Below, piece by piece: positions 3,080 through 50,672 of a stretch of 64,000 bases of DNA. Position 1 is the first letter of the stretch. Every line of letters begins with the position of its first letter. Under the pieces are notes generated by a model. The model ran no database searches. It was not told the origin of the DNA and worked only from the letters and a program-made list of their open reading frames with translations. The stretch spans positions 3,695-67,694 of the forward strand of contig MHJJ01000014.1 in the NCBI GenBank assembly GCA_001817915.1, read 5' to 3'. Source of the stretch: Candidatus Harrisonbacteria bacterium RIFCSPLOWO2_01_FULL_44_18 (GTDB lineage Bacteria > Patescibacteriota > Minisyncoccia > UBA6257 > WO2-44-18). The position numbers were made by a program, and so were the translations under genes.

Positions 3080-3427
3080 ATGAGTGCTCTCACGATCGTT
3101 CTGGCGGCCAGCATTGTCATCATGGTTTTCGCGGCGGCCCTGATCTACAAGAGCAGGAAGTCCGGGAATCGCAGCGGCCTCGCGTCGGCGGATCAGCCCG
3201 CGCGTCCTCGCCCGAAGGTTCGGTTCGGCCAGTTCGAGACCGACCAACGGGTGGCCGTGCGTGGCATCGATCTCTTCGGGCGAGTCGAAGATCGCATGAT
3301 CGGCATGGGCAGGATCGTCGGCTTTGCCAATGGTGGCCGGGCGGTTCTTCAGATGGACAACCATCGGCCCGGCGTGTTCGTACGGCGAGTCATGCGCCGC
3401 CTCCGTTCGCTTGAGGTGCCTCGCTAG
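3080..3427 (+). CDS. hypothetical single-pass membrane protein encoded in a GC-rich island
   Basis: 115 aa. AGGAGG lies 6 nt upstream. N-terminal TM segment LTIVLAASIVIMVFAAALIY. Third codon positions are about 80% G/C in this frame, which favours it over the antisense ORF in the same register. Confidence 0.65.
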   Translation: MSALTIVLAASIVIMVFAAALIYKSRKSGNRSGLASADQPARPRPKVRFGQFETDQRVAVRGIDLFGRVEDRMIGMGRIVGFANGGRAVLQMDNHRPGVFVRRVMRRLRSLEVPR

Positions 3428-3543
3428 TATCTCGGTTCGACGGTAGAAGATCGTGGTTTCCGCTACGGTCGCAGTAACTTCCGTAGCGGACTCCTCGGCC
3501 TTCTGAAAAGGCCGACCACCACTCTCTCGGTTCGTCAGCGGAC

Positions 3544-14832: not shown

Positions 14833-17385
14833 ATGCTGAAGTATAATTTTCGTAAAATAGAAAAAAAGTGGCAAGCCGTCTGGAAGCGCAATAAGTATAA
14901 GGTCTGGCGCGCCGCGGATTTTTCTAAAAATCAAAACCCAAAAGCTAAAAGCTATGTATTGGATATGTTTCCCTATCCCTCCGGCGAAGGACTGCATGTC
15001 GGCCATGTTGAGGGTTATACCGCTTCGGATATCTACGCGCGTTTTTTAAGAATGAACGGCCGTAATGTTTTGCATCCGATGGGATGGGACGCCTTTGGTT
15101 TACCTGCGGAAAATTACGCGATTAAGACAAAAACTCATCCCAGCTTGGTGGTAAAAAAGAATGTAAGGCGATTTAAAGCCCAATTAGACAGCTTGGGATT
15201 CAGCTACGATTGGCAAAGAGAAATTAATACCACCGACCCCGGATATTATAAATGGACGCAGTGGATTTTTCTGCAGATGTTCAAAAACGGCCTTGCTTAT
15301 GAAGCAGAGATGCCGGTTAATTGGTGTCCCTCTTGTAAAACCGTATTAGCCAATGAAGAGGTGATTGACGGCCATTGCGAACGTTGTGACAGCCTCGCAG
15401 AAAGAAAAAGTTTGAAACAATGGATTTTAAAAATTACCGATTACGCCGAGCGTCTGCTGAAGGATCTAGACGGGTTGGATTGGCCGGAGCGAGTAAAAGA
15501 AATGCAAAGAAATTGGATTGGCCGGTCAGAGGGGGTGATCATTAAGTTTCAAGTTTCAAGTTTAAAGTTTCCAATCGAAGTTTTTACGACTCGGCCGGAT
15601 ACTTTGGCCGGCGCCACTTATCTGGTTTTAGCGCCGGAACATCCGCTTATCAAAGACTTACAGCGCAAAATTAGGAATCCTAACGAGGTGACGCGTTATG
15701 TTGAGCAGGCGAGCCATAAATCAGAGCGCGAGCGACTGGCGGAAGTAAAAGAGAAAACCGGAGTCGAGCTTAAGGGCATTAAAGCCGTTAATCCTTTGAC
15801 CAACGAACAAATTCCGATTTGGGTCGCTGATTATGTTTTGGTCCATTATGGCACGGGCGCGATTATGGCAGTGCCGGCCCATGATCAAAGAGACTTTGAA
15901 TTTGCTCAGAAATTTGAGTTGCCGATAAAGATTGTTATTTGCCCGAATTATCCGGAACCCGTTTGCCCGATTTTAGAAAAAGCTTATGAAGGCGATGGAT
16001 ATTTGGTTGGTTCGGGCGAATTTGACGGCCTGCCTAATAACGAAGCTAAAAAAACGATTCTTGAATCGTTGATAAAAAAAGACTTGGCGAAAAAGACTGT
16101 TAATTACAAATTGCGGGATTGGGTTTTTTCCCGTCAGCGTTATTGGGGCGAGCCGATACCTTTGGTTTTTTGTAAAAATTGTAAAAAACAAGTGGAGAAT
16201 TTTAAATCTCAAAACCAAAATTATTCTTTTGATAAATTTAGTTTGGGAGAATTGTTAAATCCCGGTTGGACGGTCATTCCTGATTCAGAATTACCGGTCA
16301 AGTTGCCCAATGTTAAAAATTATCAGCCAACCGGCAAGGCCGAGTCGCCTTTGGCTGGCATTGAAAAATGGACCAAGACGAGTTGTCCCAGATGCGGCGG
16401 GTTAGCTACGCGAGAAACTAATACTATGCCGCAATGGGCGGGGTCTAATTGGTATTATTTGCGATATTTAGATCCCAAGAATAAAGAAGAATTAGTTGAT
16501 CACGACAAAGAAAAATACTGGATGGGAGTGGACTTATACATCGGTGGCGTAGAGCACGCGGTGTTGCATTTGTTGTACGCCCGCTTTTGGCATAAGTTTT
16601 TGTATGATATCGGCATAGTTTCCACCAAAGAACCTTTTGGCAAATTAATTAATCAAGGTTTAATTTTGGGGCCGGATGGCCAGAAAATGTCAAAATCGCG
16701 CGGCAATGTGGCAAATCCCGACGAAATAGTTTCTAAATTTGGCGCGGATTCTTTGCGGCTTTATGAAATGTTTATGGGGCCGTTGGAGGAGGCAAAACCG
16801 TGGGATTCCCGCGGGATCGTGGGAATGCACCGTTTTTTACAAAGAACGTGGAAGTTATTCACGAAACCGGGAATTGAAAAAAATCCGCGTAAATCTGCTT
16901 CTACCGACGCAGAATCCGCGTCAATCCGCGTAGCGAAGCTGTTACACAAAACTATCAAGAAAGTTACCGAAGATGTCAAAAATTTCCGGTTTAATACCGC
17001 TATCAGCGCGCTGATGATTTTAGTTAACGAAATGGAAAAGAATCCTCAATTACTAATTACTAATTACCAATTACTAATAAAATTGTTGTTTCCTTTCGCG
17101 CCGCATTTAGCTCAAGAACTTTGGCAAAAACTAGGAAATAAGAGTTTATTGGATTACGAGCCTTGGCCGGTCTGGGATGAAAAATTAATCCAAGAAGAAG
17201 AGTTTGAGTTAATTATTCAAATCAACGGCAAAATGCGGGGTAAAATTATGACTCAAAAGGGAATTGTCGAAGAAGACGCGAAAAAACTTGCATTCAGCCA
17301 AAATGTTATTAAGAAATGGATCGGCGGCAAAAAAATCAAAAAAACTATTTTCGTGAAAGATAGGTTGATAAATTTTATTGTTTGA
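14833..17385 (+). CDS. leuS: leucine--tRNA ligase
   Basis: FPYPSGEGLHVGH and KMSKSRGN motifs plus a CP1 editing region. Start moved to MLKYNFRKIEKKW. Inserts at 16884-16933 and 17049-17076. Confidence 0.93.
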   Translation: MLKYNFRKIEKKWQAVWKRNKYKVWRAADFSKNQNPKAKSYVLDMFPYPSGEGLHVGHVEGYTASDIYARFLRMNGRNVLHPMGWDAFGLPAENYAIKTKTHPSLVVKKNVRRFKAQLDSLGFSYDWQREINTTDPGYYKWTQWIFLQMFKNGLAYEAEMPVNWCPSCKTVLANEEVIDGHCERCDSLAERKSLKQWILKITDYAERLLKDLDGLDWPERVKEMQRNWIGRSEGVIIKFQVSSLKFPIEVFTTRPDTLAGATYLVLAPEHPLIKDLQRKIRNPNEVTRYVEQASHKSERERLAEVKEKTGVELKGIKAVNPLTNEQIPIWVADYVLVHYGTGAIMAVPAHDQRDFEFAQKFELPIKIVICPNYPEPVCPILEKAYEGDGYLVGSGEFDGLPNNEAKKTILESLIKKDLAKKTVNYKLRDWVFSRQRYWGEPIPLVFCKNCKKQVENFKSQNQNYSFDKFSLGELLNPGWTVIPDSELPVKLPNVKNYQPTGKAESPLAGIEKWTKTSCPRCGGLATRETNTMPQWAGSNWYYLRYLDPKNKEELVDHDKEKYWMGVDLYIGGVEHAVLHLLYARFWHKFLYDIGIVSTKEPFGKLINQGLILGPDGQKMSKSRGNVANPDEIVSKFGADSLRLYEMFMGPLEEAKPWDSRGIVGMHRFLQRTWKLFTKPGIEKNPRKSASTDAESASIRVAKLLHKTIKKVTEDVKNFRFNTAISALMILVNEMEKNPQLLITNYQLLIKLLFPFAPHLAQELWQKLGNKSLLDYEPWPVWDEKLIQEEEFELIIQINGKMRGKIMTQKGIVEEDAKKLAFSQNVIKKWIGGKKIKKTIFVKDRLINFIV
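17049..17076. repeat. heptanucleotide tandem repeat AATTACY x4 inside leuS
   Basis: aattactaattactaattaccaattact encodes LLITNYQLLI. Confidence 0.85.
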
Positions 17386-20339: not shown

Positions 20340-21392
20340 CTATTTTCTCTCGCTTAATATCGCTTTCGCTTCGAATTCTTTGCCTTGTCTCAAGACTTTT
20401 AGTTTTAATACATCGCCGACTTCAAGATTTTCCAGGAAATCCTGAATCGTCTTTTGAGTAGAGATTTTTTCGCCGTTGCATTCCAGAACAATATCTTTTT
20501 CTTTTATGCCTGATTTATCCGCCGGACTATTGTGGATAATGGCGGATGAATGAGGGCCGTGGCTGATAACCAAAGCGCCATAGCCAACCGGCAGATTTAA
20601 TTTTTCCTTAAGATCTTCATCAATGGTAATATAGCGAAGACCAAGAAGCGGCCGGCGGATTCGCCCATGTTCCTTTAGGTCATGAAGGTCTCTTTTTACG
20701 GTATTGATCGGAATAGCAAAGCCGAGATTTTGAGCGCCGAAGACGATAGCCGCGTTGATGCCGATTGCTTCGCCGTCCAGATTAACTAACGGACCGCCGG
20801 AATTCCCCGGATTGATGGCCGCGTCGGTTTGGATCAAGCCGCGCAATTCCTGAAGCGGCTGTTTTGGGCCGATTGCCGCTTGGATTGATCGGGAGAGTCC
20901 GGAAATGATGCCGGCTGAAACTGTATTTTTAAAAAGACCAAGGGCGTTGCCGATAGCCAAAACGGTTTCGCCTAACTCCACCTTCGAAGAATCGCCTAAT
21001 TTAACTATTGGAAGTTTATTGGCCGGCGGATTGATTTTGATGATTGCTACGTCATCGATTGGGTCGCGCGCCAGAATTTGCGCCTTATATTTTTTGTCGT
21101 CATTGGTGATTACGGCATACTCCGCCTCGCCGTCCGAGATGACATGTTTGTTAGTAACAATAATTCCATTGGCATCAACAATAAATCCCGAGCCGCCGCC
21201 GATTTTGACCATCCCGCGCGCGTCAATCATTTCCTCGGGAATTTGAAGATGAGGATCGCCGGAAGGAAATAGCGGCAACAATTCCGGAGGTATTTCTTTT
21301 TCTATCGCCTCAAGACTTTTTGAAATTACAATCGAAACTACCGACGGCATCACTTTTTTAATTGTTTTAGTAAGAGGGGATTTTTCAGCCAT
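20340..21392 (-). CDS. htrA: HtrA/DegP-family serine protease with PDZ domain
   Basis: 350 aa. TNKHV (His), DDVAIIK (Asp) and GNSGGPLVN (Ser) form the catalytic triad. A C-terminal PDZ-like region is present. Confidence 0.88.
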   Translation of the reverse strand: MAEKSPLTKTIKKVMPSVVSIVISKSLEAIEKEIPPELLPLFPSGDPHLQIPEEMIDARGMVKIGGGSGFIVDANGIIVTNKHVISDGEAEYAVITNDDKKYKAQILARDPIDDVAIIKINPPANKLPIVKLGDSSKVELGETVLAIGNALGLFKNTVSAGIISGLSRSIQAAIGPKQPLQELRGLIQTDAAINPGNSGGPLVNLDGEAIGINAAIVFGAQNLGFAIPINTVKRDLHDLKEHGRIRRPLLGLRYITIDEDLKEKLNLPVGYGALVISHGPHSSAIIHNSPADKSGIKEKDIVLECNGEKISTQKTIQDFLENLEVGDVLKLKVLRQGKEFEAKAILSERK

Positions 21393-23981: not shown

Positions 23982-24464
23982 ATGATCAAAGTCGCGCTTT
24001 TTAATGAAATTTCCCATGAATTAGGCAATACTCTTCTTGTGGATGTCACAAGCAGGATCGTTGAAAGGATTAATAATCTTTTGAGGCAGTTGTCAGTCAA
24101 CGCTCCATATTGGACTATCGGATGTTTCGCGGAGTTTTTGCGGCAGTCCAATAATCATTTAGTTGTTGCTATTGATGGCAAAATTATTGCTGGTATGGGA
24201 ACGGTTATTTTGAGCTATTCTTTAATGGGCCGTCACGCGAGGATCGAGGATGTGATTGTAGATAAACCATATCTCGGTAAGGGTTTGGGTCGAAAAATTG
24301 TCGAGGAATTAATCAGAATCGCCAACAAGGAAGGAGCAAGATGGATTGATTTAACCAGCAATTCTTCGCGAGTCGGGGCACTGAAGCTTTATAGAAGCTT
24401 GGGATTTAAGGATGTGGCGACAAATTGTTTGCGGCTGGCTTTGGGAGAGCAGGATTCGAGCTAG
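23982..24464 (+). CDS. GNAT family N-acetyltransferase
   Basis: The segment IEDVIVDKPYLGKGLGRKIVEELI is the acetyl-CoA binding motif (Q/RxxGxG/A). Start chosen at MIKVALF. The last codons lie in an arm of N4. Confidence 0.8.
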   Translation: MIKVALFNEISHELGNTLLVDVTSRIVERINNLLRQLSVNAPYWTIGCFAEFLRQSNNHLVVAIDGKIIAGMGTVILSYSLMGRHARIEDVIVDKPYLGKGLGRKIVEELIRIANKEGARWIDLTSNSSRVGALKLYRSLGFKDVATNCLRLALGEQDSS

Positions 24465-24713
24465 CATCAATTTAGTGAGCCAATTCCCGCCCATCTTCTT
24501 TGTTACTCGTCGCTTATGTGCCTATTGGCACACTACGCTCCTCGCGCCTTGAATCTGGACAGGAATTGGCTCACCCGAAGGGAAGAGAGAATTTGAGCCA
24601 AGTTCGAGGAACGACGAGGAGGTTGTGCTGGTAAGCACATCGACGAGGAGTGACAAAGAAATTGGCTCAAATTCTCTCTTCTAAATTTGACGCCAGTTCG
24701 AATCCTGCTCTCC
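24444..24713. repeat. compound nested palindrome N4
   Basis: Outer arms ggagagcaggattcgagctagcatcaatttag / ctaaatttgacgccagttcgaatcctgctctcc. Inner arms tgagccaattcc/ggaattggctca and aagagagaatttgagccaa/ttggctcaaattctctctt. Shares about 60 nt with 48682-48751. Confidence 0.9.
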
Positions 24714-24737
24714 TAGAGAAATAACCGCGGTTTCAAA

Positions 24738-26754: not shown

Positions 26755-29373
26755 ATGATTACCAAAGAAACTTTGCGAAAATCTTTTTGGGCTTTGCCGG
26801 TTCACGAGGCGCTTGACGCGCTTGAAACTACTGCCAGCGGGTTGATGCGGGATGAAGCAGAAGAGCGTCTTAGGGTTTTCGGGAAAAACGTTTTAGCCAA
26901 AAGGATAAGAATAACTAAATTAAAAATTCTTGTCAGGCAGTTCGGAAGCCCGCTGATTTTTCTTTTGTTAATTGCCGGCGGCGTTACTTTGTTTTTGAAG
27001 GATTTTAAGGATGCCGGATTTATTCTTGCCGCCGCTTTAATAAACGCGATTTTGGGATTTTATCAAGAAAGCAAAGCCGAGACGGCGTTGGCGCATTTAA
27101 GAACTTACATCAGAGAACGCAATCGCGTATTTAGAGATAATCACGAGATAGAAGTTGATTCCAGCGAATTAGCGCCGGGAGACGTCATCCATTTATCTCA
27201 AGGGGATCGGATACCCGCGGACTGCCGATTAATTTATGTCAACGATTTTGCCGTTGATCAAGCGATTTTAACCGGCGAATCCCTGCCGGTTTCTAAAGAT
27301 ATCAAGCCCGCCAGTTTTCAGGCAGTCCTCGCGGATCAGAATTCAATGGTCTTTAGCGGCACGGTGGCGGTACAGGGGTTTGCCAATGCCGTTGTTTCCG
27401 CTACCGGCAAATACACCGAATTGGGGAAAATCGCCGCTCTAGTCGCGAGGCCGGAAAAGGAACGCACTCCTCTTCGCGAGGCAATAAATAAATTCAGTAT
27501 TAAGGCCAGCATTATTTTGATCGGATTAACGGCCCTGATTTTTTCGCTCGGCGTTTTGACGGGAAGTTCATTGCTGGATATGTTTTTGATTTCGGTGGCG
27601 ATCGTAGTTTCGGCGATACCGGAAGGATTGCCAATCGCGATGACCGTCATTTTGGCGGTAGGCGTGCAAAGATTGGCGTGGAAAAAAGGAATTGTCCGCA
27701 AATTGCTCGCGGCGGAAACAATGGGCAGCACCTCGGTAATTTTGACTGATAAGACCGGCACCTTGACTGAAGCCAAGATGGAACTTTCGGAAATAAAAGT
27801 TTATAAGGAGGACCGCGCGGAAGAGCGGAAAGAAACGATATTAAAACTCGCCATCCTTAATAGCGACGTGGTGATAGAAAATCCCGGCGATTCGCCTTTT
27901 GACTGGGAAATTATTGGCCGGCCGCTGGAGGTGGCGATTGTCAGATCGGCGGCCAAATTTGATATTTTGGCGCCGGATGTTCGTAAGAAAATGAAAGCCG
28001 TCGATTATCTTCCATTTAGTTCCGTAAATAAATTTTCGGCAAACGTTATTCAGCAAGGTTCGAAATATTTACTTAGCGTGTTCGGCGCGCCGGAAATTTT
28101 ATTAAAATTTTCTAATTTGCCCGATAATTCGCGCCGCCAAATTCATAGAGATGTCGACAAGGTCGCCTATGGCGGCGCGAGAGTTTTAGCAGTCGCGACA
28201 AAAGAATTATCGGGCATTGAAGGAGTTTCGCTTCGCCAGAAAGAAATTTTTAAAGATTTGGATTTTTTGGGAACAATGTCTTTTAGGGACCCGATTCGCA
28301 AAGAAGTCAGAGACGCGGTTAATCGGGTCGCTCAAGCCGGTGTCCGCACTTTAATTGTCACGGGAGATCATCGCGGCACCGCGGAGTTTGTAGCTAAAGA
28401 AGTCGGCATTTCTATTGATGGCGATAGTGTCATTGACGGCGCTGAACTTGACGCGCTGAACGATGAAGATCTTAAAAATAGACTTCCGAATTTAAGGATT
28501 GTTTCGCGGGTAAGTCCGGAAGGAAAATTGAGGATAGTTAAAGCGCTTCAGGGGATAGGGGAGATTGTGGCAATGACCGGCGACGGCGTGAATGACGCCC
28601 CAAGTTTAAAGGAAGCTGATATCGGCGTTAGCATGGGTTCGGGCACCGATGTTGCTAAAGATGTATCGGATTTAGTTTTGCTTGACGATAATTTTGAAAC
28701 CATCGTGGAAGCCGTGGCTGAGGGCCGAAGGATTATACAAAATATCAGAAAAGTAATCGTTTATCTGCTTTCAAATGCTTTGGACGGATTGATTTTAATT
28801 GGCGGGTCCTTGCTTATCGGCTTGAGCTTGCCGTTGAACGCGCTGCAGATTCTTTGGGTTAATTTTTTTACCGATAGTTTTCCGGCAATCGCCTTGGCTT
28901 TTGAAAAAAAGATTGACCATTGGGTTGATCGTCCCGCGCCAATCCATAAAGGATTGCTTGACTCGGAAATGAGATTTTTGATTCAAGTGATCGGAGCGCT
29001 CACGAGTGTTTTGCTTTTGGTTTTATACGTTGGCTTGCTTTATTTGGGTATTGAAGAAAAATTGGTTCACACTTTTATCTTTGCCGCCTTTGGGACATAC
29101 AGTTTGTTTTTGGTTTTCGCGGTTCGAAGTTTGAGACGGAGTATTTTCACTTATAATCCTTTTTCAAACCCCGCGCTTTTGGGAAGCGTGATTTTAGGAT
29201 TGGGATTAATGGCGATCGCGATTTACGTTCCTTTTCTCCAAAAATTATTCGGCACCATGCCCTTGCCGTTAAACTGGCTCTGGGGCATCGTGGGTTTGGG
29301 AATTTTGAATGTCTTCGCGATTGAGTTTGGAAAGTGGGTTTTTAGAAAAAAACAACTAACAACTAACAACTAA
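26755..29373 (+). CDS. cation-transporting P-type ATPase (type II, Ca2+/Mg2+-like)
   Basis: 872 aa. The DKTGTLT phosphorylation site, TGES, TGDGVNDAPSLK and about 10 TM segments are present. Confidence 0.9.
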   Translation: MITKETLRKSFWALPVHEALDALETTASGLMRDEAEERLRVFGKNVLAKRIRITKLKILVRQFGSPLIFLLLIAGGVTLFLKDFKDAGFILAAALINAILGFYQESKAETALAHLRTYIRERNRVFRDNHEIEVDSSELAPGDVIHLSQGDRIPADCRLIYVNDFAVDQAILTGESLPVSKDIKPASFQAVLADQNSMVFSGTVAVQGFANAVVSATGKYTELGKIAALVARPEKERTPLREAINKFSIKASIILIGLTALIFSLGVLTGSSLLDMFLISVAIVVSAIPEGLPIAMTVILAVGVQRLAWKKGIVRKLLAAETMGSTSVILTDKTGTLTEAKMELSEIKVYKEDRAEERKETILKLAILNSDVVIENPGDSPFDWEIIGRPLEVAIVRSAAKFDILAPDVRKKMKAVDYLPFSSVNKFSANVIQQGSKYLLSVFGAPEILLKFSNLPDNSRRQIHRDVDKVAYGGARVLAVATKELSGIEGVSLRQKEIFKDLDFLGTMSFRDPIRKEVRDAVNRVAQAGVRTLIVTGDHRGTAEFVAKEVGISIDGDSVIDGAELDALNDEDLKNRLPNLRIVSRVSPEGKLRIVKALQGIGEIVAMTGDGVNDAPSLKEADIGVSMGSGTDVAKDVSDLVLLDDNFETIVEAVAEGRRIIQNIRKVIVYLLSNALDGLILIGGSLLIGLSLPLNALQILWVNFFTDSFPAIALAFEKKIDHWVDRPAPIHKGLLDSEMRFLIQVIGALTSVLLLVLYVGLLYLGIEEKLVHTFIFAAFGTYSLFLVFAVRSLRRSIFTYNPFSNPALLGSVILGLGLMAIAIYVPFLQKLFGTMPLPLNWLWGIVGLGILNVFAIEFGKWVFRKKQLTTNN

Positions 29374-29457
29374 CAACTAACAACTAACAACTAACAACTA
29401 ACAACTAACAACTAACAACTAACAACTAACAACTAACAACTAACAACTAACAACTAA
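29353..29457. repeat. heptanucleotide tandem repeat (CAACTAA)x15
   Basis: 105 bp of perfect repeat. It overlaps the last 21 nt of the ATPase CDS and abuts the stop codon of comF. Confidence 0.95.
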
Positions 29458-30167
29458 ACCTTGGCTATTACCAGTCCGATGACTCTTGCCGCGCCGGCTT
29501 TTCGTAAAATTTTTACTGCTTCGTTCATAGTACTGCCGGAAGTAAATACGTCATCGATCGGGATTATCTTTTTGCCCTTAATCAACTCCGGATTTTTTAC
29601 CGCGAAGCATCCGGCAATGTTCTCTTGCCTTTTTTCTAATCCTTTTATTTCCGGCTGGGGCTTAGTATTTTTTATTCTGATTAAATTGCCGGTCATCAAT
29701 TTCACGCCAAGGGTTTTGCTGATTTCTTCGGCAATGGCTTCAGATTGATTAAACCCGCGCCCCCTTTCTCGAGAAGGATGAAGCGGGATCGGGATAATCA
29801 AACTTGCGGGACTTATTGGCCTTATAGGCCCTATGTAGGCCAGCAGGATTTTCGCCAGCGGTTTGGCGGCGCATTTTTGTTTTTTGTACTTGAGCCGCCA
29901 AATCAGTTTTTTTACTTTTTCATCGTCATAGGACGTTGCCGCGCCCAATAAGTAGGAGTCTTTTTTGTGGCAGACTTTTTTATTGTCGGCTAATCTTGCC
30001 CGACAGATCGAGCAATACAACGCGGTATTTATAGGAATAGAATTAAAACAAGAAGCGCAGATATATTCTTCCTTTTCGGTTTTTTGAAGAGCTTTTTCGC
30101 AAATCAAACAAATCGGCGGGGAGAGAATATCCAAAACAGCGCCTTTTAATCTTATTAAGTAATTCAT
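29454..30167 (-). CDS. comF: ComF family protein (phosphoribosyltransferase domain, ComFC-like)
   Basis: 237 aa. N-terminal Cys pairs (CLIC..CASC, CSIC) and the PRTase motif IIPIDDVFTSGSTMNEA. Confidence 0.8.
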   Translation of the reverse strand: MNYLIRLKGAVLDILSPPICLICEKALQKTEKEEYICASCFNSIPINTALYCSICRARLADNKKVCHKKDSYLLGAATSYDDEKVKKLIWRLKYKKQKCAAKPLAKILLAYIGPIRPISPASLIIPIPLHPSRERGRGFNQSEAIAEEISKTLGVKLMTGNLIRIKNTKPQPEIKGLEKRQENIAGCFAVKNPELIKGKKIIPIDDVFTSGSTMNEAVKILRKAGAARVIGLVIAKV

Positions 30168-30169
30168 AA

Positions 30170-30329
30170 GACCTCTTGCTTAATAATTTTTCGTTACGAA
30201 ATGGATAAATTTGAGGCGAAACAAAGCGAAAATTTCGAGGCATATACAAGAGTATCTGTCGAGAAATTTTCGCAAAGTTGTAGCCCAAATTTATACATTG
30301 CAGTAGAAAAGGTTATTACGCAAGAGGTC
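30170..30329. repeat. compound nested palindrome N6
   Basis: Outer arms gacctcttgc / gcaagaggtc. Inner arms gcgaaaatttcgag / tcgagaaattttcgc. Confidence 0.75.
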
Positions 30330-30390
30330 TATATTCTGGTATACTAAAGCTAGATTGTCGTTAAGGCAAATTCACTGAACTAAGAACTAA

Positions 30391-31470
30391 ATGGCTTTCG
30401 ATTTTTTTAAATCTTTACTCGGCGCCCAAAATTATTTGGCGGTTGATATCGGCACTACTTCGATAAAGGTTTTAGAATTTTCAAAAAAATCCAACGGCCG
30501 GCCGGCTCTTCGCAATTACGGATTTTTGGAAACCTACGGCTATCTGGAAAGATTTAATGAAGCCCTTCAAACCAGTAGTTTGAAAATGCTTGATGTGGAG
30601 GCGGCGAAGTATTTAAAAATAGTTTTGGATCGCGCCGGAATCAAGTCGCGGTCGGCGGTCGCGTCCATACCCGCCTTTATGGCCTTTACCACTTTAATCG
30701 AACTGCCAATGATGAGCGAAGCTGAAACTTCGCAGACAATGGATTTTCAGGCAAAACAGTATATTCCCATCCCGGTAAAAGCGGCCGCGATTGATTGGAT
30801 AAAGATAGGCGAACGCGAGGACGAAGAGGGGCGAAAGAGACAGCAAGTTTTTTTGATTTCCGTTCCAAAGGAACAAATTGAAAAATATCAAAAGATTTTC
30901 CGGCTAGCCGGTTTGAAATTAGCCGCTTTGGAAATCGAGGGTTTGAGTCTTGCTCGAGCGCTTAGCCGAGGCATTAAAGAGCCGGTTTTGATTGTTGATA
31001 TCGGCGCTCGTTCAACCAGCCTGACCGTCGGAGTAGACGGGCTTTTGAGATTCGCCGGTCAAACCGATTTTGCCGGCGGCTCCTTGACTCAAGCAGTGGC
31101 TTCGGGTTTGGGCATCGCCGCCCGACGAGCTGAAGAATTGAAGTGGCGGAAGGGCTTAATCGCCACCGGCGGCGAGCAAGAGTTATCCACACTGATGCTA
31201 CCGTTTTTAGATGTTATAATTAATGAGGCGAAAAGAGTCAAGCAGAATTACGAAACCAGTTATCAGAATAAGATAGCCGCGGTTATTTTGGCGGGAGGCG
31301 GGGCAAATTTGTTGGGTATAGAGAAATATTTTGGTCAACAGATAGAACTGCCGGCATCTTTAGCCGCTCCCTTCAAAGAGATTGACTATCCGCCGGAGAT
31401 TGCCTCGTTAATCAAAGATTTGGGACCGGCATTTTCAGCCGCGATAGGACTAGGGATGAAAGGGCTATAA
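30391..31470 (+). CDS. pilM: type IV pilus assembly protein PilM (actin-like ATPase fold)
   Basis: 359 aa. Has the YLAVDIGTTSIKVLEF start, and sits first in a pilMNO-pilB-pilT-pilC context. Confidence 0.85.
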   Translation: MAFDFFKSLLGAQNYLAVDIGTTSIKVLEFSKKSNGRPALRNYGFLETYGYLERFNEALQTSSLKMLDVEAAKYLKIVLDRAGIKSRSAVASIPAFMAFTTLIELPMMSEAETSQTMDFQAKQYIPIPVKAAAIDWIKIGEREDEEGRKRQQVFLISVPKEQIEKYQKIFRLAGLKLAALEIEGLSLARALSRGIKEPVLIVDIGARSTSLTVGVDGLLRFAGQTDFAGGSLTQAVASGLGIAARRAEELKWRKGLIATGGEQELSTLMLPFLDVIINEAKRVKQNYETSYQNKIAAVILAGGGANLLGIEKYFGQQIELPASLAAPFKEIDYPPEIASLIKDLGPAFSAAIGLGMKGL

Positions 31471-31612
31471 CGAAGTAATCGCGAACAACGCGAATCTATG
31501 CAAAATAATGCTAATAATTTATTCGCGTTATTTCGAATCAGATTAGCATTATTCGCGATTACTCCGATTCGTGTTATTTTGAAACAAATTAGCATTATTC
31601 GCGATTACTCCG
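31471..31612. repeat. pilus-operon junction repeat, copy 1 (stop of pilM to start of pilN)
   Basis: Starts cgaagtaatcgcgaacaacgcgaa immediately after the TAA and ends attagcattattcgcgattactccg immediately before the ATG. Confidence 0.9.
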
Positions 31613-32146
31613 ATGAATCAAAATCTTGTTGATAAATTTGAAACGGAAAGATTGCCGACCGGGTGGCCATGGCGGTTATTTTTGTTCAGTTTTTTGCTTT
31701 TCGCGGCGACGGTCGTCAGTTATTTTGGTTTGTCATTGGGCTATAAGCCGTTTTTAAACAGGCAAATTGCCGGAAAGGAAGCGGAAGTTAATCAATTGGC
31801 GGCGGCCGTTCCCGAAGCCGAGCAGGAAAATTTTATTAGATTTTATTCTCAATTGGCGAATTTGGAGAAAGTCTTAAACAACCATGTTGTTTCTTCCGCC
31901 CTCTTTCCATTTTTAGAAAGAAATACCAACGTCCAGATATATTACAATATCTTGGATTTCAGCGCTTCGGAGAAGAGATTGACTTTGGATGGCGTTGCTC
32001 AAAACTACGATATTTTAGCGCAGCAGCTCGAGGCTTTCACTCAAGCTAAAGAGGTTGAGCGGTTTTTAATCAATGAATCGCAATTAAGCGAAGGAAAAAT
32101 AAGATTTCGGGTATCGCTATTTTTAGCGCCGCAAGTATTGAGATAA
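31613..32146 (+). CDS. pilN: PilN-like type IV pilus assembly protein
   Basis: 177 aa with a single N-terminal TM segment, located after pilM. Confidence 0.6.
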   Translation: MNQNLVDKFETERLPTGWPWRLFLFSFLLFAATVVSYFGLSLGYKPFLNRQIAGKEAEVNQLAAAVPEAEQENFIRFYSQLANLEKVLNNHVVSSALFPFLERNTNVQIYYNILDFSASEKRLTLDGVAQNYDILAQQLEAFTQAKEVERFLINESQLSEGKIRFRVSLFLAPQVLR

Positions 32147-32147
32147 A

Positions 32148-32717
32148 ATGAAGGCTTCAACTAAAAGAATTTTCAGTTTGTTGGGAATCGCCGCTTTGTT
32201 GGTGGCGACATTGGCGGTTTACGCGAGTTTAATCAGGCCTGAATATGAAATTGTGGCCCAGCTTCGCGGCGTTCTTTCGGCAAAGACCAAATTGCTTGAA
32301 GAACAGGGGCGGGTAATCGCTCAAGTTCAGGATTTGATCGCGCAGTATCAAGGCGCGGCTCAGCTTCAGGAAACTATTTCTCTGGCATTGCCAACGGATG
32401 AAGCAACGGCCTCTATTTTCCAGCAAGTTAACGCCATTGCCAGAGCGAACGGCCAGTCCACTCAGGCTTTTGGTTTAACGGCTTTGGCCATTAAGCCGGC
32501 GTCCAGCGACGCGCCCGGATCCAAAGGATTGGGGACGCTGCGGCTGAACTTCCGCCTTTTGGGTAATTACGGAGGATTTAAGGGATTCTTAAAAGCTCTT
32601 GAGACCAATGTCCGAGTTATGGATTTAGCCGGTTTGAAAATGGAACAGGCCGGTCGCCCCAATCAAGATTTATATTTTTATAATTTAGTGGTCGATACAT
32701 ACTATCAATCACATTAG
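32148..32717 (+). CDS. pilO: PilO-like type IV pilus assembly protein
   Basis: 189 aa with an N-terminal TM segment and a coiled-coil-like segment. The call rests on position. Confidence 0.6.
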   Translation: MKASTKRIFSLLGIAALLVATLAVYASLIRPEYEIVAQLRGVLSAKTKLLEEQGRVIAQVQDLIAQYQGAAQLQETISLALPTDEATASIFQQVNAIARANGQSTQAFGLTALAIKPASSDAPGSKGLGTLRLNFRLLGNYGGFKGFLKALETNVRVMDLAGLKMEQAGRPNQDLYFYNLVVDTYYQSH

Positions 32718-32832
32718 TCTGTTATCGCGAGGCATTTATGCCGAGCTAGTTACCAGTTACCAATTACTTCGTGGAATCGCCGTGTAATCAGTAACTTGCT
32801 CAACATAAAGGTTTCGCGACACAGTTCAAAGT

Positions 32833-33123
32833 ATGGCCATACTTGTCAGCGAGCAAAAAAAACCGATTAACTGGTTCGCCATAATTTTTGTGGTGATTTT
32901 AATCGCGCTAGTCGCGGGCGGCGCCTACTATTTGTTTTTTGCTCCGACGCCGGGTATTGAAATAATCGTGCCTCCATCGCTTCAATCCGTTACTAAAATT
33001 TCCCAGGTTGAATTCGACCCGGCCGCCGTAGTTAACAGCCGGGCATTCAAAGTTTTGCGTTCTTATACCGGCTTGCCAAGTGTCGGAACGTTGGGAAGAG
33101 GTAATCCGTTTATTGGTTTTTAA
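32833..33123 (+). CDS. hypothetical single-pass membrane protein in the pilus operon
   Basis: 96 aa with TM segment WFAIIFVVILIALVAGGAYYLFF. Confidence 0.5.
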   Translation: MAILVSEQKKPINWFAIIFVVILIALVAGGAYYLFFAPTPGIEIIVPPSLQSVTKISQVEFDPAAVVNSRAFKVLRSYTGLPSVGTLGRGNPFIGF

Positions 33124-33223
33124 TAATTGTATAGACCGATGCTAAAAATGCGAAATAAATGCGAATTATGCGAAGTATAAAGTTTTTTCGCAACATTCGC
33201 ATCATCAATTTCGCATCGGTAAC

Positions 33224-34957
33224 ATGAAAGATCAAGACCTCTTAAAATCTTTAATCGAAGCCGGTTTTTTAACTTCCGATCAGGAAGATAAGATTTCCAA
33301 AGAATCAGCCGTTCTTCATAAAAGCGCCGAAGATATTATTTACGGCCGGCATTTGGTTGATGAAGCCGAGGTGGCGAAAATAAAAAGCCGGCTGTTGGGC
33401 GTTCCTTATAAAAAAGTTGATGTTGATGAGCTAGGCGACGAGCTTTTGGGTTTAATCCCGGAAGAAACCGCCCGGACTTATAAAGTTTTTCCGATTTCTC
33501 GGACAAAAGATTTGCTGGTGGTAGGGATGCTTCATCCGGACGATCCGAAGGCCCAAGAAGCCCTTCGTTTTATCGCTAAACAATCGCGCGTCAGTCTCGG
33601 GATTTATTTGGTGACGCCCTCCGACGTGGAATTAGTTTCGCGAAAATACGCTCCTTATAAAAGCGAGGTTCAGGCCGCGCTGCAGTCTTTAAATATAAAA
33701 CCCGGCCAAGGCGTTTCTTCTTTTCAGAGAGTGATAAAACTGGAAGAAGCGGCCGCCGCCGCCGAAGAGGCGCCGGTTATTAGAATTGTAGCTTCGACTC
33801 TGCGCGAAGCGGTTAACGCCAACGCTTCCGACATTCACATTGAGCCGCAGCGCGCTCGGTTAAGAATCAGATTTCGGCTCGATGGCGATCTGCAGGAGGT
33901 TTCTTCTTTGCCCATAGAACTTCATCAGCCCATAATTTCCCGAATTAAAATTTTATCCAGTTTGAAAATTGATGAAACGCGCGTTCCTCAAGACGGGCGT
34001 TTTAGGACTGTTATTTATGACCGCGAGATAGATTTTCGCGTTTCCACTTTTCCGACGCCGGCCGGCGAAAAAGCGGCTCTGCGGGTTCTTGACCCGACTA
34101 TCGGTTTGCGAAGTCTTGATGATTTGGGTTTGATCGGAAGAAATTTAGACATCGCTAAGGAAGCAATTGAAAAACCTTACGGCATGGTCTTGATTACCGG
34201 TCCGACCGGATCCGGCAAAACAACAACGCTTTACGCTTTGATGCAGGTTCTTAATAAAGAAAGCGTCAATGTCGTGAGCCTTGAAGACCCGGTGGAATAT
34301 ACGATTGACGGCGTCAATCAATCGCAGGTTCGTCCGGAGATCGGCTATGATTTTGCCTCGGGCCTGCGCCAGATTTTGCGCCAAGATCCGGACATTATGA
34401 TGGTCGGCGAGATTCGCGACAGCGAAACCGCCGCTTTGGCGATTCACGCGGCTCTGACGGGGCACATCGTGCTTTCAACTTTGCATACCAATAATGCCGT
34501 CGCCGTTATTCCGCGCTTAACAGATATGAAAGTCGAGCCGTTTTTATTGCCGAGTTCTTTAAATTTAATGATATCTCAACGTTTGGTTTCTCGGCTTTGC
34601 CAGCGCTGTAAAAAAGCCGAGGATCCCTCGCCGAAAATTCTGGAAGAAATTAAAAAAGAAATTGAGAAACTTCCGGCCGTTGTCAGGGTCAAGTACCGGG
34701 AACCGTATAAAATTCATCATTCGCCGGGATGCAAGTTCTGCAATAACAAGGGGTTTGTCGGCCGAATAGCCCTGTTTGAAGTTCTTCAGATGACTCCGGA
34801 ATTGGCGGAGATAATAGCCGCCGGGATCAATGAGGCAAAAATTTTAGCCGAAGCCAAGCGGCAAGGGATGATTAGTTTGCGCCAGGACGGCGTGGTAAAA
34901 GCGCTAGACGGTTTGGTGAGCGTGGAAGAAGTATTAAGAGAAACAGAAGAACTGTGA
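33224..34957 (+). CDS. pilB: type IV pilus assembly ATPase PilB (GspE family)
   Basis: 577 aa. Walker A GPTGSGKTTT, the Asp box, a His box and a tetracysteine motif (CQRC..CKFC) are present. Confidence 0.92.
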   Translation: MKDQDLLKSLIEAGFLTSDQEDKISKESAVLHKSAEDIIYGRHLVDEAEVAKIKSRLLGVPYKKVDVDELGDELLGLIPEETARTYKVFPISRTKDLLVVGMLHPDDPKAQEALRFIAKQSRVSLGIYLVTPSDVELVSRKYAPYKSEVQAALQSLNIKPGQGVSSFQRVIKLEEAAAAAEEAPVIRIVASTLREAVNANASDIHIEPQRARLRIRFRLDGDLQEVSSLPIELHQPIISRIKILSSLKIDETRVPQDGRFRTVIYDREIDFRVSTFPTPAGEKAALRVLDPTIGLRSLDDLGLIGRNLDIAKEAIEKPYGMVLITGPTGSGKTTTLYALMQVLNKESVNVVSLEDPVEYTIDGVNQSQVRPEIGYDFASGLRQILRQDPDIMMVGEIRDSETAALAIHAALTGHIVLSTLHTNNAVAVIPRLTDMKVEPFLLPSSLNLMISQRLVSRLCQRCKKAEDPSPKILEEIKKEIEKLPAVVRVKYREPYKIHHSPGCKFCNNKGFVGRIALFEVLQMTPELAEIIAAGINEAKILAEAKRQGMISLRQDGVVKALDGLVSVEEVLRETEEL

Positions 34958-34966
34958 TATAATTAA

Positions 34967-35108
34967 CGAAGTAATCGCGAACAACGCGAACCTATGCAAA
35001 ATAATGCTAATAATTTATTCGCGTTATTTCGAATCAAATTAGCATTATTCACGATTACTCCGATTCGTGTTATTTTGAAACAAATTAGCATTATTCGCGA
35101 TTACTCCG
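34967..35108. repeat. pilus-operon junction repeat, copy 2 (pilB to pilT)
   Basis: More than 90% identical to copy 1 by eye and ends directly at the pilT ATG. Confidence 0.9.
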
Positions 35109-36182
35109 ATGGACGATTACAAACAAAAACTAGATGAATTACTGTTGACTACGGCGAAACAGAACGCTTCGGATCTTCATTTGGCCGTCGGTCGCCGTCC
35201 GACTTTAAGGATTGACGGCGCTTTAGTGCCTTTGCAAAAAGAGACGATATTAACTCCCGAGTCAGCCGAGGGTTTGATCAGCGCCTTTTTAACGCCGGAG
35301 CAAAAGGAAGAATTTCTAAAAAATAAGGAGCACGATCTTTCCTATTCTTTTGAAGACAAAGCCCGGTTTCGCGTCAATGTTTTTTATCAGCGGGGATTTA
35401 TGGCCGCCGCTTTGCGCTTGATACCGGCTCAAATAAGGACAGTCGAAGAACTTAATTTGCCGCCAGTCTTGCACGATTTTACCCGTCTTTCTCAAGGTTT
35501 TGTTTTACTTGTCGGTCCGGCCGGCCACGGCAAATCTACAACGATGGCCGCGCTGGCGGATGAAATCAATCATCAGCGCACCGCTCATATCATTAGCATT
35601 GAAGATCCCATTGAGTATTTATTTTCTCAAGATCGGAGCATTATTTCTCAAAGAGAGGTGAGAAATGATACGCCGGATTTTCACAAAGCGCTCCGTTCTG
35701 TTTTAAGACAAGACCCGGATGTGGTGATAATCGGCGAAATGCGCGACCCGGAGTCAATCTCAACGGCGCTGACGGCCGCCGAAACCGGCCACTTGGTTTT
35801 TTCAACGCTTCATACCAATTCCGCCTCCCAAACGATAGATAGAATTATTGATAGTTTTCCGCCCGCCCAACAGAGCCAGATTACATCTCAATTATCCGCC
35901 ACATTAGTCGGCATTGTTTCTCAACGTTTAATTCCGCGGGTTGACGGCGGCCGTATGCCGGCTTGCGAAGTAATGCTCGTTAATTCGGCGATCAGAAATT
36001 TGATCCGCGAGAGAAAGGCGTATCAAATTGATTTGGTGATTGAAACCAGCATGCAGGAAGGAATGTTAACTCTTAACCGTTCTTTAATCGGTTTGGTGAA
36101 AAAGAGGCAGATTTCAATTGAAAACGCGGAGCTTTATTCATTGAACCCGAGCGAGTTGAGGATATTATTGGAGAGAACATAA
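35109..36182 (+). CDS. pilT: twitching-motility / retraction ATPase PilT
   Basis: 357 aa. Walker A GPAGHGKST and ASDLHL motifs are present. PilT-size hexameric ATPase. Confidence 0.9.
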   Translation: MDDYKQKLDELLLTTAKQNASDLHLAVGRRPTLRIDGALVPLQKETILTPESAEGLISAFLTPEQKEEFLKNKEHDLSYSFEDKARFRVNVFYQRGFMAAALRLIPAQIRTVEELNLPPVLHDFTRLSQGFVLLVGPAGHGKSTTMAALADEINHQRTAHIISIEDPIEYLFSQDRSIISQREVRNDTPDFHKALRSVLRQDPDVVIIGEMRDPESISTALTAAETGHLVFSTLHTNSASQTIDRIIDSFPPAQQSQITSQLSATLVGIVSQRLIPRVDGGRMPACEVMLVNSAIRNLIRERKAYQIDLVIETSMQEGMLTLNRSLIGLVKKRQISIENAELYSLNPSELRILLERT

Positions 36183-36331
36183 CGAAGTAATCGCGAACAA
36201 CGCGAACCTATGCAAAATAATGCGAATACTGTTAACGGAGCAATCGCTAATAATGCGAATTTTGGCAAAATAATGCTAATAATTTATTCGCGTTATTTTG
36301 AATCAGATTAGCATTATTAGCGATTACTTCG
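36183..36331. repeat. pilus-operon junction repeat, copy 3 (pilT to pilC)
   Basis: Has the same termini as copies 1 and 2, with a different internal segment. Confidence 0.9.
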
Positions 36332-44467: not shown

Positions 44468-46531
<2,064 letters not shown>

Positions 46532-48664: not shown

Positions 48665-48681
48665 CGTCAATCCCGCGCCTA

Positions 48682-48751
48682 GGAGAGCAGGATTCGAACT
48701 AGCGTCAAATTTAGAAGAGAGAATTTGAGCCAAGTTCGAATCCTGCTCTCC
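48682..48751. repeat. 19-bp-stem hairpin related to N4 (probable metK terminator)
   Basis: Stem ggagagcaggattcgaact / agttcgaatcctgctctcc. The loop shares sequence with 24444-24713. Confidence 0.85.
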
Positions 48752-48810
48752 TATTATCCGCCTAAATGGCGGATTTTTGTTTTTGAATAAACAAGTTATA
48801 ATTAAACTTA

Positions 48811-49196: not shown

Positions 49197-50672
49197 ATGC
49201 ACTTACACGATTTAACAATCAAAAAGTTCCACGAAGGTTTACTAAAAAAAGATTTTTCCGCGCTGGAAATAACGAAGGAATTTTTTGATTACATTGAAGT
49301 TAAGGATAAAGAAATTGGGGCTTATCTTTCCTTGGCCAAAGACGAAGCATTTTTGCGGGCCGAAAAAGCAGATTTAAAAATTGCCAAAGACGAACCGATG
49401 GACGCGCTGAGCGGGGTGCCGCTCGCGATCAAAGACAATATTTTGATTGATGGCCAGCCGGCTACTGCCGCATCTAAAATTTTGGAAAATTATAAGGCGG
49501 TTTATGACGCAACGGTAATTAAGAAATTAAAAGCCGTTGGAGCGGTTTTCCTTGGCAAAACTAATATGGACGAGTTTGCCATGGGTTCTTCGACAGAAAA
49601 TTCCGGATTTAAATTAACTAAGAATCCTTATGATTTGGAACGAGTTCCGGGAGGGTCTTCCGGCGGTTCGGCAGCCGCGGTTGCCGCCCATATGGCAGTG
49701 GCCGCCTTTGGTTCTGATACCGGCGGTTCAATTCGACAGCCAGCCAGTTTCTGCGGTGTTGTCGGATTAAAGCCGACTTATGGAGCGGTTTCTCGACATG
49801 GATTGATCGCGATGGCTTCAAGCTTGGATCAGATCGGCCCTTTTACGAAAACCGTTGAAGACGCGGCGATTTTATTTAAAACTATTGCCGGAAAAGATCA
49901 GTTTGATTCTACCAGCGTTGAAACAAATTATAATGATGAATTATTAAATCCAAAGCTTGAAGATGTTAAAAAACTGACCGTCGGTCTGCCGGAAGAATAT
50001 TTTATAAGCGGCGTTGAGCCAGGCGTCATTAAAGCAGTTGAATCGGCAATCAATCAATTCAAAAGTTTGGGGATTAATTTTAAAAAAATCAGTTTGCCGC
50101 ACACCAAATACGCCTTATCTTGCTACTATATCATTATGCCCGCGGAAGTTAGCGCCAATTTAGCTCGTTTTGATGGTATAAGATATTCCAAAATCCAAAA
50201 TCCAAAATCCAAAATCCAAAACTTGCTGGAATTGTATAAAAGACAGCGCAGCGAAGGATTCGGGCCGGAAGTGAAGCGAAGAATTATTCTGGGAACTTTT
50301 GTTTTATCATCCGGATATTACGATGCTTACTATGCCAAAGCGCAGAAGGCGCGCGCGCTGATCAAAAAAGATTTTGATGAAGCATTCAAAGAAGTAGATG
50401 TTATTCTTACTCCGGTCGCGCCAACGCCGGCATTCAAATTCGGAGAAAAAACCAGCGACCCATTGGCGATGTACCTTTCTGACATATTTACCATTCCAGT
50501 CAATCTTGCTGGCTTACCCGCTATTTCGATACCAGTGAAACAAGCGACAAGCGACATGTCGCGCGTCACAAGTCATAAGCCACTGCCTATCGGTTTTCAA
50601 TTGATTGGCAAACATTGGCGAGAGGCCGATATTTTGGGGATGGGGATGTTTTATGAAAGATTACAAATTTAA
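49197..50672 (+). CDS. gatA: Asp/Glu-tRNA(Asn/Gln) amidotransferase subunit A
   Basis: 491 aa with the amidase signature GGSSGGSAAAVAA..GSDTGGSIRQPA. Inserts at 50187-50221 and 50544-50570. Confidence 0.93.
   Translation: MHLHDLTIKKFHEGLLKKDFSALEITKEFFDYIEVKDKEIGAYLSLAKDEAFLRAEKADLKIAKDEPMDALSGVPLAIKDNILIDGQPATAASKILENYKAVYDATVIKKLKAVGAVFLGKTNMDEFAMGSSTENSGFKLTKNPYDLERVPGGSSGGSAAAVAAHMAVAAFGSDTGGSIRQPASFCGVVGLKPTYGAVSRHGLIAMASSLDQIGPFTKTVEDAAILFKTIAGKDQFDSTSVETNYNDELLNPKLEDVKKLTVGLPEEYFISGVEPGVIKAVESAINQFKSLGINFKKISLPHTKYALSCYYIIMPAEVSANLARFDGIRYSKIQNPKSKIQNLLELYKRQRSEGFGPEVKRRIILGTFVLSSGYYDAYYAKAQKARALIKKDFDEAFKEVDVILTPVAPTPAFKFGEKTSDPLAMYLSDIFTIPVNLAGLPAISIPVKQATSDMSRVTSHKPLPIGFQLIGKHWREADILGMGMFYERLQI
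50187..50221. repeat. heptanucleotide tandem repeat TCCAAAA x5 inside gatA
   Basis: Read directly; encodes SKIQNPKSKIQN. The same heptamer occurs x4 in pheT. Confidence 0.95.

Follow-up and report, generated by a model that had tools for sequence, protein, structure and literature searches.

A REPIN/MITE-like palindromic repeat at stop-to-start junctions of a Harrisonbacteria pilus operon and of core-gene operons in other Patescibacteria

Correia elements (CREE/NEMIS) of Neisseria are inverted repeats of 100–155 bp, present in hundreds of copies, that insert next to or inside operons. They are co-transcribed as hairpins that are processed by RNase III, and they can change the expression of the neighbouring gene. 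The repetitive extragenic palindromic (REP) and BIME sequences and the RAYT-mobilised REPINs of Proteobacteria are abundant, short extragenic imperfect palindromes made of inverted sub-repeats. Here we describe a repeat of this general kind in a 64-kb stretch of Candidatus Harrisonbacteria DNA (the window, whose positions serve as coordinates throughout), in which three copies fill junctions of a type IV pilus operon. We conclude with good confidence that these copies are a non-autonomous, operon-invading repeat resembling REPINs or MITEs (miniature inverted-repeat transposable elements), and that they arrived recently in the Harrisonbacteria pilus operon. The family to which they belong extends across the candidate phyla radiation (CPR) and apparently had not been described before. 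Its members favour stop-to-start junctions and persist almost exclusively in the short non-coding stretch before a start codon. Our preferred explanation, to which we give a probability of about 0.45, is that the repeat is co-transcribed and is tolerated solely in places where the upstream frame is closed by the 5′ arm and the next AUG directly adjoins the 3′ arm, an arrangement that would preserve coupled initiation independent of Shine–Dalgarno (SD) pairing.

Three composite copies in the pilus operon

A sequence-only reading of the window had placed structured repeats at three pil junctions. Both the coordinates and the sequences of these copies were confirmed, and none is expected by chance:

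31471–31612, plus strand: copy 1, pilM/pilN junction; core unit 31471–31566, then a duplicated 3′ half-unit 31567–31612; covariance-model hit 31472–31565, 93 bits; flanked by the pilM stop TAA (31468–31470) and the pilN ATG (31613)
34967–35108, plus strand: copy 2, pilB/pilT junction; core unit 34967–35062, then a duplicated 3′ half-unit 35063–35108; covariance-model hit 34968–35061, 85 bits; pilT ATG directly after, at 35109
36183–36331, plus strand: copy 3, pilT/pilC junction; 5′ half-unit 36183–36235, then core unit 36236–36331; covariance-model hit 36237–36330, 92.5 bits; flanked by the pilT stop TAA (36180–36182) and the pilC ATG (36332)
34955–34966, plus strand: pilB stop region; TGA (34955–34957), TATAAT, then an in-frame TAA (34964–34966) that is part of the repeated unit

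The repeated unit starts with TAACG at all four left ends in the repeat-family comparison of the window. An exact span from stop to start, proposed for every copy, holds for copies 1 and 3; copy 2 starts 9 nt past the true pilB stop, TGA. Each copy is a composite of one and a half units: a core of about 96 nt is accompanied by a duplicate of its right half in copies 1 and 2 and of its left half in copy 3. Composites of the same build occur in other genomes (L024 5900–6044 and L055 5621–5765). Over 148 nt, flanking TAA and ATG included, copy 1 is 98% identical to copy 2, and no strain polymorphism was seen at the three copies, the six contigs of the window organism being identical across the elements. 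The 5′ 24-mer CGAAGTAATCGCGAACAACGCGAA occurs exactly three times in the 64 kb, versus 0 expected from 100 shuffles. A scan of the window confined the 3′ 22-mer and its inverted partners to the three copy loci, and the degenerate terminal 21-mer AGYAATCGYKAAYAAYGCKAA picked out nine arm ends, all at the three junctions.

Alignment with copies from other genomes gave a canonical unit of about 95 nt, an imperfect palindrome whose two inverted arms, each about 45 nt long, enclose a variable centre. An arm consists of a 22-nt terminal block (AGTAATCGCGAATAATGCGAAT), a variable spacer of 8–10 nt and a 12-nt block (AATAATGCGAAT), and the whole unit reads RG-AGTAATCGCGAATAATGCGAAT, 8–10-nt spacer, AATAATGCGAAT, variable centre, ATTCGCATTATT, 7–11-nt spacer, ATTCGCATTATTCGCGATTACT-CY. 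Its termini are 22-nt imperfect inverted repeats (AGTAATCGCGAATAATGCGAAT / ATTCGCATTATTCGCGATTACT), that is, terminal inverted repeats of the MITE type. In the window copies the spacer segments are nearly identical: CTATGCAA, CTATGCAA and TTTGGCAA for one and TCGAATCAG, TCGAATCAA and TTGAATCAG for the other.

The predicted pairing of the first with the last 15 nt was found at 14 of 15 positions in copies 1 and 2, where the mismatch is A·C. Copy 3 also pairs at 14 of 15 positions rather than at all of them, with a G·A mismatch at position 13, and the nested inner arms (aataatgctaat / attagcattatt) pair at 12 of 12. Sense-strand folds of copies 1–3 reach −42.1, −38.6 and −51.1 kcal/mol (z from −4.3 to −6.6), and antisense folds −53.8, −54.9 and −51.5 kcal/mol. 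The sense fold is weaker at four of the five hairpin junctions of the operon (copies 1 and 2 and two others); copy 3 is marginal (−51.1 versus −51.5).

In about 70 loci of relatives, PilT is 72–80% identical to that of the window and the order is pilM-N-O-X-B-T-C-pilin-pilD. The covariance model gave no hit in these syntenic loci, and the junction elements of the window are thus absent from the relatives' pilus operons. The relatives' minimal junctions are an overlap, TAAtATG, TAAaATG, TAAttATG or TGAccATG, the empty ones measuring 1–12 nt; others span 60–210 nt and are filled by other palindromes, and 38 of 64 expanded junctions fold with z < −3. Among the proposals of the sequence-only reading, that of an operon-invading palindromic element is well supported by the near-identity of the copies, their absence from the syntenic relatives and the occurrence of the family in many unrelated operons of 36 other assemblies. 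The repeat is probably mobile, spreading at the DNA level without leaving a target-site duplication.

Several of the relatives' pilT/pilC junctions hold cousin palindromes of words of about 9–10 nt that end in AAT. Homology of copy 3 to these palindromes was considered and rejected: only the word architecture is common to them, and there is no convincing alignment. The same pil junctions in relatives also carry unrelated hairpins of inverted heptamer runs (L166 5906–6001, L143 2342–2552, L145 5339–5420, L171 3399–3485 and three junctions of L165), for example (TTTAGGG)n...(CCCTAAA)n and (GAGGTAT)n...(CATCTCC)n. At the site that copy 3 occupies in the window, the pilT/pilC junction, L126 (1160–1181) reads TAAagAGCAATCGCGAATACTttATG; this resembles two termini fused at the direct repeat TCGCGAAT and may be a collapsed element, a deletion footprint.

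The remaining features of the operon are as follows:

33124–33223, plus strand: diverged relative of the repeat, filling the orfX/pilB junction; palindrome of ATGCGAA / TTCGCAT words; minimum free energy −29.9 (sense) and −34.6 (antisense), z −4.4 and −5.6
30391–31470: pilM; Pfam PilM_2
31613–32146: pilN-like; no Pfam match
33224–34957: pilB; Pfam MshEN and T2SSE
35109–36182: pilT; Pfam T2SSE; OGY63095.1
36332–37540: pilC; Pfam T2SSF

An unrelated hairpin fills the pilO/orfX junction of the window operon. The called starts of PilN, PilT and PilC are sound, because homologue alignments begin at residue 1–4.

A start-codon-anchored family in Patescibacteria

The family was traced by scanning the degenerate 21-mer against one genome per species and taking 8-kb stretches around the matches, with taxon labels as in the records. 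Among the matches listed, more than 116 stretches were found, nearly all of them from metagenome-assembled genomes (MAGs) of Patescibacteria, where our own estimate, which assumes uniform composition, puts the chance expectation at about 17. The labels in these listed matches are Harrison-, Lipton-, Wolfe- and Colwellbacteria, Paceibacterota and 'Saccharibacteria', and the few matches outside Patescibacteria are single motifs. The covariance model (R1) recovered 79 distinct full elements from 36 assemblies plus the window. Their words are conserved almost base for base across distant lineages, and spacers and centres vary. Carriage by phages was set aside after one hit in 2.9 million viral contigs. 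At gathering score, Rfam 15 gave tRNAs only for the whole window; at permissive E-values, copy 1 gave only generic miRNA-precursor hairpins of at most 24 bits, against cut-offs of 56–211 bits. A literature search with the motif strings, and on repeats in CPR, on MITEs, on inverted repeats and on anti-SD, found no description of the family, the strings occurring only in 16S or in unrelated primers.

The open reading frames (ORFs) downstream of the elements are core genes, among them SecY, L14, S8, L6, L24, L18, S11, SSB, GroEL, ClpP, MreB, RRF and PilB-like ATPases, and identical gene junctions carry elements in distant genomes. In the spc operon of one Liptonbacteria locus (L059), four canonical copies and several cousins stand before ribosomal-protein genes; most genes are so preceded, and none has an SD sequence. 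The family is not pilus-specific, and the idea that the repeats set the stoichiometry of pilus ATPase and platform finds no support.

Position was counted for the 71 full elements with enough flank, with start-side ORFs of at least 70 codons. Co-directional stop-to-start junctions account for 44 of the 71, with the layout of a coupling helix: a stop at the 5′ base of the stem and a start at its 3′ base. The start codon lies 2–3 nt past ...GATTACT at 35 of 56 start-side ends and 0–4 nt past it at 42 of 56, the mode being 3 nt. On the other side, 37 of 66 ends have their upstream stop within −3 to +5 of the motif's first base, with modes at −1 and +5. The 5′ arm carries TAA triplets, the one within AGTAATC serving as the upstream stop 11 times, and the remaining upstream ORFs mostly stop in the first 35 nt of the arm. 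The start-codon anchor is tighter than the stop-codon anchor: the distance of 2–3 nt to the ATG is kept even where the other side is unsqueezed, and almost no copies lie 20–50 nt upstream. Orientation is polar as well. When the 44 elements are oriented by their downstream start, the 5′ arm is canonical in 41, and the start-side arm carries GCGAA(C/T)ACT, which disrupts stem pairs 4–5, in 23.

The freedom of the other side, the polarity and the essential genes downstream together argue that start-codon anchoring does not come from DNA target choice alone; it indicates selection at the level of expression. The sequence-only reading had named copies unlinked to stop/start junctions as one observation that would count against its proposal; copies elsewhere turned out to be strongly tied to junctions. 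A role as a divergent promoter was rejected: of six start/start configurations in an early count, a single one was left when upstream frames could also end within the motif.

Initiation without SD pairing and the weighing of explanations

The junction ATGs lack an SD sequence, as had been observed, but this is the norm here: an SD-like tetramer precedes only about 12 of the 57 long ORFs of the window. A −10-like box (TATAAT-like, often with a TGn extension) lies 6–11 nt upstream of 10 of 39 ATG genes in the window, which suggests leaderless or near-leaderless mRNAs; examples precede 20340–21392 (minus strand), 40973, 44477, 48811, 51729–53078 (minus strand) and 54832. The 16S genes on three element-bearing loci of Parcubacteria (L037, L040 and L119) end without CCUCC, in ...GGAUUAUUUACAUU in a Harrisonbacteria genome (L037) and in ...GGACUAAUUAAAUU and ...GGAUCAAUUAAUCUAG in the other two; after the conserved ...GTAACAAGGCACGCGTAGCGGAAGCTGYGCGTGGA, the tails read TTATTTACATT in that Harrisonbacteria genome and otherwise CTAATTAAATT and TCAATTAATCTAG. 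The loci concerned are:

L037, 158–1764: 16S gene; aligned by Rfam to the end of the SSU model
L119, 1–294: 16S gene; aligned by Rfam to the end of the SSU model
L040, 3′ end near 3381–3440: 16S gene

In the literature we found no paper linking loss of the anti-SD to CPR. Two connections with 16S rRNA were examined and dropped. The terminal stem is not a mimic of SD:anti-SD pairing or a partner of the 16S tail, given that the tails vary by lineage and the words are constant. In Pseudomonas, helix 43 of 16S rRNA has a 5′ strand (PMC8388859) identical to the 13-mer AGTAATCGCGAAT of the terminus (window 31474–31486); the CPR 16S genes here read AGTAATCGCGCAT or AGTAATCGTGGGT, with only 8–11 nt in common, and the match is probably coincidence. 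In L040, a Liptonbacteria MAG, the 16S gene gives split Rfam hits (1–657, 1791–2393 and about 3381) and departs from the model after ...GTACTCAC, consistent with a large insertion in the gene. In L119 a full element (314–406) lies 36 nt downstream of the 16S 3′ end, where rRNA-processing stems normally sit.

The promoter-like site that bears most directly on the copies is the following:

34934–34963, plus strand: best sigma-70-like site of the operon; TTAAGA, 18-nt spacing, TG-a-TATAAT; matches at 10 of 12 positions, with the TG extension in addition; overlaps the pilB stop

Its end lies 6 nt ahead of copy 2's AGTAATC motif and 3 nt ahead of the start of the element at 34967. Transcription is predicted to start at about the first base of copy 2, so that a pilT transcript from this site would have copy 2 as its 5′ leader. 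In relatives, a TGnTATAAT or ggTATAAT box lies 6–10 nt before the pilT ATG. No terminator-like site was found at any copy, the stems being followed by CCGAUG or UCGAUG with no U tract.

Against this background, we infer that the element is transcribed within the operon mRNA and folds in vivo. In a host clade without SD/anti-SD pairing, the downstream cistron would be translated by coupling to the upstream ORF or by 5′-end-dependent initiation. Under coupling, a terminating ribosome would melt the 5′ arm, and re-initiation could then use the 3′ arm, which is AU-rich and thereby set free, together with the AUG that adjoins it; only flush insertions would keep coupling working, and a stop-to-start rule would follow. 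The sequence-only reading had suggested, as one possibility, termination–reinitiation across a structured bridge. That suggestion gains from the association with junctions and from a clade that, lacking SD/anti-SD pairing, needs coupling or a 5′-end mechanism, and it loses from the promoter-like site at copy 2. A required RNA bridge is further disfavoured because there is no covariation, the sense hairpin is the weaker one and half elements are placed flush.

Several observations also weigh against the tolerance explanation itself. The sense strand folds less stably than the antisense in 31 of 44 oriented elements (p = 0.006), A·C exceeding G·U; a weaker sense hairpin is the opposite of what is predicted for a selected mRNA helix. 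Covariation analysis of the copies, a check that the sequence-only reading had proposed, found no compensatory change, with 88.8% paired cells versus 89.4% when partners were shuffled, and the mismatches of the family hairpins occupy fixed positions. Half elements, with a single arm that lacks an inverted partner and so forms no hairpin, likewise reach from stop to start or stand immediately before a start; because they are equally placed, the hairpin is not required for placement. Copy 2 and some other copies lie behind promoter-like sites, and on transcripts from these no upstream ribosome would open the hairpin. Nor did the marks of transposition appear: across 76 elements, direct repeats of 2–8 nt at offsets 0–5 were no commoner than in shuffled pairings, with none at the window copies, and no ORF enclosed by two element ends, parent insertion sequence (IS) or transposase was seen in the 8-kb stretches around matches. 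Copies were detected via an intact terminal motif, and ORFs and starts were called mechanically, so the position counts carry an ascertainment bias.

The same evidence can be read in other ways. The repeat might be a portable intercistronic expression cassette, whose 5′ arm ends the upstream frame and whose 3′ arm hands the ribosome to the AUG, by re-initiation or by RNase III punctuation, with a CPR-wide conserved factor reading the words; we hold this unlikely, though a serious contender. It might, at the other extreme, be purely selfish or neutral DNA with no role in expression, its flush position following from a spacer-poor genome with ancestral junctions of 0–10 nt and from the recovery of intact copies only. 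The empty orthologous junctions of 1–12 nt and a window that is 87% coding fit this, as do the missing covariation and the excess of A·C over G·U in the sense strand, which suggests that an RNA hairpin is costly rather than beneficial; in relatives, moreover, numerous unrelated palindromes and arrays of heptamers sit at these places, one array varying in copy number between assemblies. What makes neutrality rather unlikely is that the 2–3-nt spacing is kept with the other side free and that almost no copies lie 20–50 nt upstream, unlike random insertion into promoter-bearing spacers. It also has to accommodate a strong polarity relative to the downstream gene, copies that precede essential, highly expressed genes inside ribosomal-protein operons, and words conserved almost to the base across distant lineages. 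A flush hairpin could instead be cut by RNase III out of a polycistronic or 5′-extended transcript, possibly with RNase J trimming, leaving a leaderless downstream mRNA for the SD-independent ribosomes of the clade to translate; any long palindrome would serve, and flush insertions would be harmless. RNase III, RNase J and PNPase are kept in CPR genomes (PMC12641178), and such punctuation would agree with the leaderless-type signature of 10 in 39 ATG genes, with the tighter start-codon anchor and with an element 36 nt after a 16S gene; in relatives' expanded junctions, unrelated hairpins lie between the pilT −10 box and the ATG, a layout like that of copy 2. Yet half elements without a hairpin are equally flush, RNase III usually cuts within a stem and not at its base, the sense hairpin is weakened and a structure-only role does not explain the strong word conservation, so that we judge RNA punctuation improbable.

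An arm could act in DNA as a binding array for a conserved protein or as a portable promoter, the palindrome being two such modules back to back. Its roughly 45 nt hold three GCGAAT boxes spaced by about 9 and about 21 bp. Words spaced by about two helical turns, and conserved words with variable spacers and centres and no covariation would suit a DNA-level element, as would single arms found in either orientation directly beside start codons and the ATGs that immediately follow ...AATAATGCGAAT in L121, L122 and L013. For the promoter version, AATAAT in GAATAATGCGAAT could be the −10 box, with a leaderless ATG 6 nt behind it. Inside the window copies, however, a consensus scan found no promoter-like site directed at the downstream gene; the first word frequently reads AATAAC or AACAAC, without the invariant T of a −10 box; the usual orientation puts the −10-like CATTAT at least 14 nt from the ATG; and the operons that house most copies should not require a promoter for each gene. 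We rank this account just behind RNA punctuation, as improbable. Very improbable, and largely refuted, is a small RNA gene or guide-RNA unit, such as a TIGR-Tas stem-loop tigRNA with the 8–10-nt internal-loop segments as guides. The architecture of a stem, two segments of 8–12 nt and an inner hairpin is similar, and tigRNAs are common in CPR at flexible positions (PMC12045711; bioRxiv 10.64898/2026.09.09.750476). But the variable segments hardly differ between the three copies and resemble one another within other genomes too; the family conserves stems and not loops, the reverse of published tigRNAs; no Nop-domain gene occurs among the Pfam-annotated genes within about 10 kb (a 21-kb neighbourhood); and there is no Rfam match. 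An integron attC site was rejected as well: the flanks are the core pil operon, syntenic in about 70 relatives, the neighbourhood has no integrase and the ends lack GTTRRRY.

Should the position rule hold genome-wide, the family would be an abundant, undescribed dispersed repeat of CPR that would help in annotating genomes and calling start codons and would serve to mark strains. It would also bear on how internal starts are found in lineages whose 16S rRNA lacks the anti-SD: SecY and spc ribosomal-protein genes start 2–3 nt behind a stable hairpin with no SD sequence. Words conserved without covariation would then point to a protein that recognises a specific sequence and is a transposase or a host factor. 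As for the pilus operon, its junction elements do not constitute a regulatory device peculiar to pili. If the cassette account were true, a hairpin plus AUG would be a general start-site architecture in these lineages.

The window contains other repeats. A tandem heptamer array, (AACAACT)n, lies at 29351–29457 between convergent genes. Its unit count is about 15 in the window, as it is in three further contigs of this organism, and 4 in contig L003 (3390–3430), either a real copy-number polymorphism or an assembly collapse. A 160-nt imperfect palindrome at 30169–30330, with 79-nt arms that are 72% complementary, lies 1–2 nt from the start of the minus-strand gene 29454–30167 and upstream of tggTATACT, the promoter-like site of pilM. 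Short runs of 7-nt units (ATTGGTA, AGCGACA, AAATCCA and CTACAAA among them, some inverted at distant sites) occur in the spacers 1157–1187, 17048–17078, 46277–46307, 50177–50221, 55061–55091, 56545–56589 and 32746–32768. Inverted, near-identical fragments with the tRNA-like T-arm sequence GTTCGAATCCTGCTCTCC are found at 24439–24473, 24582–24718 and 48679–48753, with 97% complementarity over 59 nt between 24658–24716 and 48679–48737; they may be partial tRNA duplications or attachment-site remnants.

Comparison with known repeats and junction structures

Some described systems resemble the family in working only. Coupling hairpins and shunts, such as the long-distance pairings of RNA phages, the leader hairpins of T4 genes 38 and 25 and the cauliflower mosaic virus (CaMV) shunt, have the stop at the 5′ side and the start at the 3′ base of a stem. 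They are single, locus-specific and kept by covariation, whereas the family is dispersed, shows no covariation and has hairpin-less halves in the same position. For RNA punctuation, the counterparts are the RNase III sites between cistrons of phage T7 and the tRNAs that punctuate mitochondrial transcripts; removal of a structured RNA lying exactly between cistrons gives mature mRNAs, leaderless in mitochondria. The downstream genes of T7 keep an SD sequence and the mitochondrial marks are tRNAs, whereas processing of the family is hypothetical.

Among mobile repeats, MITEs derived from DDE elements are alike in their terminal inverted repeats, small size, several near-identical copies and patchy distribution among relatives. 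The family differs in having no target-site duplication and no parent IS seen in the 8-kb stretches, in an orientation biased to the downstream gene and in words conserved over very distant lineages. Correia elements are characterised by duplication of a TA target, by an IHF site and by defined ends that form promoters; the family is unrelated to them in sequence, shows no duplication and is built of modular 22-nt and 12-nt words with variable spacers in a codon-fixed position.

REP/BIME sequences and REPINs share with the family, beyond their build of inverted sub-repeats, a place within operons with probable co-transcription, the lack of a target-site duplication, conserved mismatches and strand asymmetry. 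The heads of REP palindromes are GTAG or CGTC (PMC3733652); neither was found at the family palindromes, whose head is (R)GAGTAATCGC. The family is otherwise set apart by an unrelated sequence, by arms that are not themselves palindromic, by a host range in CPR and by its anchoring to start and stop codons at the level of single nucleotides, which is not a REP property.

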